Shown: positions 43,503 to 45,840 of the stretch, piece after piece
Layout: each line of letters starts with the position of its first letter
Numbering within the stretch: position 1 is the stretch's first letter
Sequence record: OL960581
DNA from: Escherichia phage vB_EcoM_SA20RB
Strand: one strand, 5' to 3'
Length of the DNA stretch: 64,000 nt
Notes under the pieces: model-generated
What the model was told of the DNA's origin: nothing
The model's input: only the letters and a program-made list of their open reading frames with translations
Databases searched by the model: none
Made by a program: the position numbers and the translations under genes

Positions 43503-44363
43503 TTACACCGCCATCTTTCCTTTCAAGACACCATGGGACTGATAATCTTTGAGAACGAAATCTCGTGCTGTCATATATTCAGTTAACCAATACATTTGAG
43601 TTTCAGTATCGCATTGACTGAATCCATTAGGCCAATTAATACTAAGTTTGCATAGATCCATAGGAGTTCTATTTAATATCTCTTTGCATTGCTCAATATG
43701 GTTAGAATAAATGTGTGTATTACCACCCGAGAATACCAAATCGCCCGGAACTAGTTCACACATGTCAGCAACAATATGTAAAAGAGCAGCATAACTCGCG
43801 ATGTTAAATGGAAGACCGAGGAAAACATCTACCGAACGTTGATACCATTGTAGGTCAAGGTATCCGTTACGCACATTAAACTGATAGAACATATGACAAG
43901 GTGGTAATGCCATCTGCTTGAGTTCAGCTGGATTCCATGCCGACACAATTTGACGTCTATCATTGGGAAATGTTTTAATACGATTAACAACTTCTACAAT
44001 TTGATCTACACCACCAAAATCACGCCACTGTTTTCCGTAAATTGGACCAAGTTCACCGCTATGATAACCTAAGTCTTTGGCCTGGTTTTCGTAGTTTTCA
44101 TCCCAAATTGTTTTTCCTGCAATTAAAGATCCATGAGTACGTTGACGTAAATCATTTACGTTAGTACTTCCTGATAAGAACCACAATAACTCAGAAATAC
44201 ATGCATTCCAGGCGAGCTTCTTAGTTGTTACTGCAGGAAAACCTTTAGTTAAATCCCAGCGTAATTTAGTACCGAACAAAGCAATTGTTCCTGTGCCTGT
44301 TCGGTCATCAGTTTCATAGCCGTTTTCAAAAATGTCTTTAATTAAATCTTGGTATTGTTTCAT
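43503..44363 (-). CDS. td: Thymidylate synthase, uninterrupted
   Basis: 286-aa continuous ORF; catalytic Cys in LPPCH. Confidence 0.95.
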   Translation of the reverse strand: MKQYQDLIKDIFENGYETDDRTGTGTIALFGTKLRWDLTKGFPAVTTKKLAWNACISELLWFLSGSTNVNDLRQRTHGSLIAGKTIWDENYENQAKDLGYHSGELGPIYGKQWRDFGGVDQIVEVVNRIKTFPNDRRQIVSAWNPAELKQMALPPCHMFYQFNVRNGYLDLQWYQRSVDVFLGLPFNIASYAALLHIVADMCELVPGDLVFSGGNTHIYSNHIEQCKEILNRTPMDLCKLSINWPNGFSQCDTETQMYWLTEYMTARDFVLKDYQSHGVLKGKMAV

Positions 44364-44407
44364 TTAGTACCTTATATAAATTATAATACATTTTATGAAG
44401 CTAATAA

Positions 44408-44755
44408 TTAATACGGTTTAGCATCAAATTTTCTTTCAATTTCAGGCGTAAAATACAATTCTTTACCACGCTTGGAAAAGCGACCAATAATATGATAATT
44501 ATTCTCATCAAACGTGATATTGCCGATATCCATAGCTTTCAACCAAATATCGATATTTCTGTCAAGCTTTATATCAAAATTCCAATACGGAGAACTATTA
44601 CCGAAAATACTACAAGCGGATTCAGTGAAACAACTGCTATAAATCTTGTCTTTAGGAACTACTAATTGATAGACGCCTTTAATAAACTGAGGACCCTGCC
44701 AATTTGGTTGTTTCGCGTCTTTTTCTAATAGAATAGGGTAATAATTAAAATTCAT
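44408..44755 (-). CDS. Hypothetical protein between frd and td
   Basis: 115-aa ORF with ATG start; no recognisable motif. Confidence 0.55.
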   Translation of the reverse strand: MNFNYYPILLEKDAKQPNWQGPQFIKGVYQLVVPKDKIYSSCFTESACSIFGNSSPYWNFDIKLDRNIDIWLKAMDIGNITFDENNYHIIGRFSKRGKELYFTPEIERKFDAKPY

Positions 44756-44774
44756 ATTTTCCGCCAGTGTTATT

Positions 44775-45597
<823 letters not shown>

Positions 45598-45601
<4 letters not shown>

Positions 45602-45840
45602 TTTAATTCCTCAATATAAAATATGTCAGACGGTTCAATATAATTGTTAGAGCGTTGGCCATGATAATTATAAATGCAAAAGTAAAATTTATTTTTAAAT
45701 TTATTTCGCACTAAAGAAACCGTATAGTAATCACCATTTAAGGTTTGAACGACAAATAAATTATCATAATAAGTTAGATTTTTGTAGATATCAGCAATAT
45801 CTATGTCTTCCCCAACCTTAAGCAAATTTAGTGTTTTCAC
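45598..45840 (-). CDS. Hypothetical protein (frd.2 position)
   Basis: 80-aa ORF. Confidence 0.55.

Follow-up and report, generated by a model that had tools for sequence, protein, structure and literature searches.

In phage T4 the genes for dihydrofolate reductase (frd) and thymidylate synthase (td) overlap at ATGA, with nothing between them; the original prediction had stated this direct adjacency, correctly. In Escherichia phage vB_EcoM_SA20RB (sequence record OL960581) the two genes are instead separated by an interval of 411 bp, exactly 44364–44774, occupied by an open reading frame for a 115-residue protein that we refer to here as ORF115. How did a gene come to stand at this junction, and what is its product likely to do? 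All positions are those of the window, by which we mean the whole 64,000-nucleotide stretch of DNA that was analysed.

The gene and its spacers

The features of the junction, all on the minus strand and given here in the direction of transcription, are as follows.

44775..45356, minus: frd (dihydrofolate reductase), upstream neighbour, 193 aa
44767..44781, minus: left repeat copy, TAAATGAAATAACAC (alignment A4 and sequence)
44756..44774, minus: 19-nt spacer from the frd stop to the ORF115 ATG, AATAACACTGGCGGAAAAT, read from the sequence
44408..44755, minus: ORF115 (paralogue A, phrog_1928 member), ATG start, TAA stop, 115 aa (ORF list and sequence)
44364..44407, minus: A/T-rich 44-nt spacer from the ORF115 stop to the td ATG, 16% G+C (sequence)
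44401->44380, minus: GCTTCA, 10 nt, TATAAT, a sequence motif in the 44-nt spacer ahead of td
44352..44366, minus: right repeat copy, TAAATGAAACAATAC, at the real td start (alignment A4 and sequence)
43503..44363, minus: td (thymidylate synthase), downstream neighbour, 286 aa, uninterrupted and without an intron

The surrounding genes are arranged as in the nucleotide-metabolism cluster of T4: nrdA, a DUF4326 gene (nrdA.1-like), a DUF5496 gene (nrdA.2-like), td, ORF115 and frd, continuing beyond frd with two small ORFs, a DUF5417 gene (frd.1-like), an FRD2-family gene and gene 32. ORF115 lies on the same strand as frd, starts 19 nt past the frd stop and encodes a predicted product of 13.6 kDa with a pI of 7.7. 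Its base composition (G+C 0.325, GC3 0.29) is like that of its neighbours, which rules out a foreign origin, and no paralogue turned up elsewhere when the 64-kb window was searched in all six frames with an HMM.

An A/T-rich leader had been ascribed to the ORF. Since ORF115 is read from the minus strand, the 44 A/T-rich nucleotides lie downstream of it and form the leader of td. The spacer that does precede ORF115 has 37% G+C, is not notably A/T-rich, and is kept in T2. Within it, 5–10 nt ahead of the ATG, is a weak Shine–Dalgarno-like GGCGGA, the probable ribosome-binding site of ORF115; the putative counterpart for td is an AAGG in the 44-nt spacer. Also contained in the 44-nt spacer is GCTTCA-N10-TATAAT, which, going by the T4 middle-promoter consensus, we take to be MotA-box middle-promoter-like. 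The pattern GCTTYA-N10-13-TANNNT was found 22 times in the 64-kb window against 9.1 expected, the spacer site included, with 14 of the 22 on the minus strand. This putative middle promoter may give td a transcript of its own. The best sigma-70-like match in the region (TTGACC-16-TATAAT, 45004->44977, minus, 11/12) is located inside frd; it is probably a chance occurrence, having no exact counterpart in the 12 loci compared (L001–L012, which include T2 and T4).

The frame had been described as well formed, and it proves to be a genuine gene. ORF115 matches the phrog_1928 HMM with E = 9.3e-36 (123 bits; residues 4–111 on profile positions 2–125 of 126), and a tblastn search found a full-length homologue in 549 phage records, at one place per record. 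Against T2 there are 15 synonymous differences and one non-synonymous difference (dN/dS 0.012), and against phage WilhelmHis dN/dS is 0.045; the same comparisons give 0.25 for frd and 0.10–0.15 for td. Purifying selection on ORF115, as judged from these alignments, is very strong (dN/dS 0.01–0.05), and the constraint on it exceeds that on either frd or td. A chance or decaying frame without function would agree with the viability of T4 without ORF115 and with the fact that no function is known for it, but that reading is already contradicted by dN/dS, as well as by the full-length frame in so many records, by family residues that stay invariant across 25–97% identity and by a confident fold prediction; we consider it practically eliminated.

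Junction types and the descent of ORF115

ORF115 is already known as a gene: hundreds of records list its product as a hypothetical protein, and it is catalogued in phrog_1928 (PHROGs v4, unknown function), of which it is a member showing no difference. At 90% identity or more it is present in 362 of the 549 records, including T2, RB3, RB18, RB32, wV7 and ime09; in these phages and in AR1, hypothetical proteins of the same family fill the same slot between frd and td. Identity to ORF115 is 93–100% within the genus and 29–46% in other genera.

In every locus inspected the homologue is directly 3′ of frd, and among T4-like phages at least six further groups have a diverged orthologue in this frd-adjacent slot. 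The Klebsiella T4-like phage RCIP0032 has one copy, overlapping both frd and td. A homologue likewise follows frd immediately in CC31 (Karamvirus) and a metagenomic relative, in the Kanagawavirus Enterobacter phage Entb_45, in Edwardsiella phage PEi26 and a JGI contig, and in the Mosugukvirus Pectobacterium phage PM2 and the Gelderlandvirus Salmonella phage S16. Orthologues overlap or abut frd in T2, WilhelmHis, RCIP0032, CC31, PEi26, PM2, S16 and three more loci (L011, L015 and L016), and the closest orthologues outside the genus, on two contigs at 62–65% identity, are again the gene directly after frd. With the CC31 orthologue as query, 255 records were recovered, the hosts being Klebsiella, Enterobacter, Salmonella, Citrobacter, Erwinia, Serratia, Kosakonia, Edwardsiella and Cronobacter.

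Following this gene (A) in most of the other-genus genomes examined is a second ORF (B, 113–118 aa). A and B are paralogues (hhalign probability 98.7%, E = 1.7e-16), both match phrog_1928, and they form a tandem pair after frd in CC31, S16 (gp155/gp154) and PM2 (gp191/gp192). By HMM score ORF115 groups with the A-type and not the B-type (136.8 versus 18.9 bits, a margin inflated by the inclusion of close relatives in the A-type HMM). Whereas other genera have the two tandem paralogues, often together with a 68-aa gene and with overlapping stops and starts, here there is a single copy set off by spacers of 19 and 44 nt. The third gene (C, 68–69 aa) lies ahead of td in Entb_45 and in locus L015. 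In Nami and Shinka, close relatives of T4, a 68-aa ORF takes the place of ORF115, with 81% and 69% identity to the td-adjacent C gene of relatives. Among close T4 relatives the A-type junction accounts for about 355–362 records, the C-type for about 135 and the T4-type for a few tens, the last figure being approximate, as it was obtained by subtraction from roughly 520 matching records in the phage collection. On these approximate counts the A-carrying junction appears to be the commonest among the close relatives of T4 (Tequatrovirus), and T4 to be in a minority state.

Because the C gene is common to Nami and Shinka and to other genera, the alternative junctions point to differential loss from one cassette. 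The simplest reading of the sequences is an ancestral frd-A-B-C-td arrangement, conserved among the T4-like phages that infect enterobacteria, of which T2-type phages keep A, Nami-type phages keep C and T4 keeps none. As judged from these junctions, the frd/td overlap of T4 is a derived state in which the gene has been lost; the textbook arrangement is then a derived minority state at a place that commonly holds one to three small genes. Identity to other-genus orthologues is 29–43% for ORF115, 47–52% for Frd, 71–78% for Td and 72–78% for NrdA. Divergence that tracks that of Frd, together with native G+C, argues for the vertical descent of a fast-evolving small protein, and we hold it nearly certain that ORF115 is a real, ancestral, vertically inherited gene.

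The frame had been called inserted, and likened to strain-specific accessory genes. That description does not survive the comparison, given a majority allele, orthologues after frd in other genera, divergence tracking Frd and native composition. The mark of a conserved core gene had been given as an orthologue in this place in T4 itself and every relative: most relatives do have one there, and T4, which lost the gene, does not. The junction nevertheless carries a trace that a recent insertion would explain. Flanking the whole frd–td interval is an imperfect direct repeat, TAAATGAAAYAAYAC, whose copies match at 13 of 15 positions. The frd TGA overlaps a vestigial ATG-AAA-TAA mini-frame in the left copy, which resembles the td start, and the T4 junction corresponds to one repeat copy. 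A recent, strain-specific insertion into a T4-like frd/td overlap would have left the duplicated td start as a target-site scar. The repeat fits a deletion between short repeats in the T4 lineage equally well, however, and with a native composition, the majority allele among close T4 relatives and the same slot filled in at least six other T4-like groups, recent insertion is very improbable.

A related proposal, that ORF115 is a free-standing homing endonuclease and thus a selfish mobile element between frd and td, is present in the databases. The label ‘putative homing endonuclease’ is attached to the gene in two BASEL records, WilhelmHis (MZ501113.1) and KarlGJung (MZ501089.1); the BASEL paper (2021 E. 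coli phage collection) identified putative homing endonucleases in the setting of a comparative-genomics alignment, and the label may have been given on presence/absence alone. Besides this label, presence/absence polymorphism with respect to T4, the flanking 13/15 direct repeat and a short GVYQL string resembling the GIY of I-TevI would agree with such an element, and the likeness to GIY-YIG homing endonucleases (I-TevI, Seg) extends to the two-record label and an 8-residue GIY-like string only. Against it, no GIY-YIG, HNH, LAGLIDADG or other nuclease model matches in Pfam at E up to 10, and when the family profile is compared with I-TevI by hhalign, 8 residues align, with a probability of 0.6%. 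Family members do not conserve the YIG part of the motif, nor is there a conserved YIG/Arg/Glu set. With 115 aa the protein has roughly half the length of I-TevI (245 aa) and of the Seg and Mob enzymes. The position is fixed across genera and the divergence parallels that of Frd, as vertical inheritance would predict; the presence/absence pattern is explained by differential loss, and not by the sporadic spread of a mobile element. We therefore regard the endonuclease reading as scarcely credible. A second label, ‘putative glucose-1-phosphate adenylyltransferase’ (BW-1, OR125554.1; SF2-1, PQ571308.1), finds no Pfam or NCBIfam model in its support. Both labels lack sequence or structure support and should not be propagated.

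Protein family, predicted fold and possible roles

The absence of a recognisable motif, noted when the frame was first described, extends to the databases. Neither the ORF115 protein nor its family profile has a match in Pfam, NCBIfam or PDB sequences; Pfam returned no family for ORF115 even at E up to 10 and chance matches only for 23 family members, and the PADLOC models (PADLOC-DB) gave 0 families at E up to 10. A literature search found nothing on the gene, and phrog_1928 is a family without assigned function, Pfam or NCBIfam model, or solved structure; the A and B proteins of other genera belong to it as well.

When 1.84 billion cluster representatives were searched exhaustively with HMMER, only 22 clusters were recovered, all of 95–116 aa except two longer proteins. 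No evident fusion was found in either of the two, P0021 (321 aa) being a reverse transcriptase with chance matches and P0023 (380 aa) matching in three short stretches only (E = 3e-4, no Pfam family), and both were omitted from the family alignment. Both family alignments, A2 and A3, show Q16, W19, G27, N79, G91, F93, K95 and G97 as conserved, and Y29, R92 and F102 are nearly invariant. The pI of family members ranges from 6.8 to 9.4, which rules out an acidic DNA mimic.

With an alignment of 18 diverse sequences AlphaFold reaches pLDDT 85.4 and pTM 0.79, against pLDDT 59 from four close sequences. The 18-sequence model is a small all-β domain with a helix (residues 68–76) ahead of a long hairpin (86–96 and 99–104). 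ORF115 is predicted to be a single-domain small β-barrel in which one helix lies between strands and the elements follow an OB-like order, for which OB-fold nucleic-acid-binding domains (RPA, Cdc13, Teb1, S1, cold-shock and HIN) offer a tentative comparison. Searched against the PDB with Foldseek, the model had no match at E below 1. Its significant matches among predicted viral structures were only to uncharacterised proteins, the named ones being from T4-like phages (PM2, Muldoon and Cronus).

The small size, the lack of a catalytic set, the aromatic, basic and glycine character of the conserved residues and the OB-like order favour a non-enzymatic binder, and such a function is probable. 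Invariant Q16, W19, G27, Y29 and N79, together with the G91-R-F-x-K-x-G97 hairpin, could form the binding surface. What it binds would be either single-stranded nucleic acid or a protein belonging to the nucleotide-precursor and replication machinery; of these, nucleic acid is a tentative choice that we think rather unlikely, and the net charge of ORF115, about +0.6, is low for a nucleic-acid binder and tells against that choice.

ORF115 would share its direction of transcription with frd and td and belong to the early/middle nucleotide-metabolism cluster. Given the common strand, and the overlapping stops and starts shared with neighbours in other genera, its expression is expected to accompany that of Frd and Td. 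The growth of T4 without it marks the gene as accessory and dispensable, and its accessory role is likely to be one of binding and not catalysis. Adjacency to frd and td is no proof of a functional link, as tight gene packing is general in T4-like genomes. Taken as a whole, the best explanation, to which we assign a probability of about 0.5, is that ORF115 is the surviving paralogue A of the cassette, a non-enzymatic binder made together with Frd and Td.

Counter-defence or host targeting is the main rival to this explanation. A small protein of this kind could bind a host factor, for instance a nuclease or an immunity protein, and neutralise it, with the different alleles reflecting selection by different hosts. 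Three alternative contents of the frd–td interval (A, C or nothing) lie between conserved core genes in close relatives of T4, a pattern typical of accessory or anti-defence loci, and a small protein without an enzymatic motif that is dispensable in T4 would suit such a role. Yet the sequence is extremely constant within the genus (97–100% amino acid identity at the dN/dS given above) and the position is fixed across many genera with different hosts, so that a conserved phage-internal or universal target fits better than an arms-race gene. The alleles, moreover, are explained by differential loss from the ancestral cassette and not by gain of unrelated cargo. PADLOC also gave no match, although that library consists of defence proteins and not anti-defence ones. 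We judge a counter-defence or host-targeting role unlikely, if still worth keeping in mind.

A more specific version of the binder explanation would make the A/B family a new small β-barrel serving as a dedicated accessory subunit or regulator of T-even deoxynucleotide synthesis, in which the A/B protein could bridge Frd and Td to DNA or gp32. Such a component, if real, would have escaped decades of phage genetics for the sole reason that T4 deleted A-B-C; we see this as a distinctly long shot. On present evidence ORF115 is an ordinary conserved hypothetical gene, and a reasonable and cheap genetic target in T2 and T4.

Variation in td and beyond frd

The 3′ two-thirds of td (43503–44100) is a rare allele, at least 95% identical in about 22 phage records (100% in REP4), and sampled Escherichia T4-like records are 72–88% identical over the same stretch. 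Protein identity to T2 is 81% for Td, 99.8% for NrdA and 99.1% for ORF115. The rare allele and the low identity of Td beside neighbours at 99.1% or more point to a recombination breakpoint inside td.

Unlike the intronless td found here, the T4 gene is joined from two pieces around I-TevI. A link between ORF115 and the td intron was considered and is not supported: phage Geo has ORF115 together with a td whose match falls into two parts divided at the intron site, and PST also has ORF115, its td being labelled td-A. In phage Shinka (locus L006, 1538–2718) td is annotated as two CDS pieces about 314 nt apart with no endonuclease ORF between them, and looks like an ORF-less intron beside a C-type junction. 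The thymidylate synthase call in CC31 (locus L009, 3655–4701) is 348 aa long, and that in the closely related metagenomic contig (locus L008, 3655–4515) is 286 aa.

Situated between frd and the DUF5417 (frd.1-like) gene are the two small ORFs of 81 and 80 aa (45356–45601 and 45598–45840, minus), for which no Pfam family was found. The corresponding gap is only 72 nt in T4, holds one small ORF in T2, and contains one together with a DUF2861 gene in Nami; with small-ORF content differing among T4, T2, Nami and this phage, the upstream side of frd is polymorphic too. In Entb_45 (locus L003, 2502–3016) frd itself is annotated as two pseudogene fragments, with A, B, C and td intact; if frd is truly a pseudogene there, the small genes can be maintained in the absence of a functional Frd.
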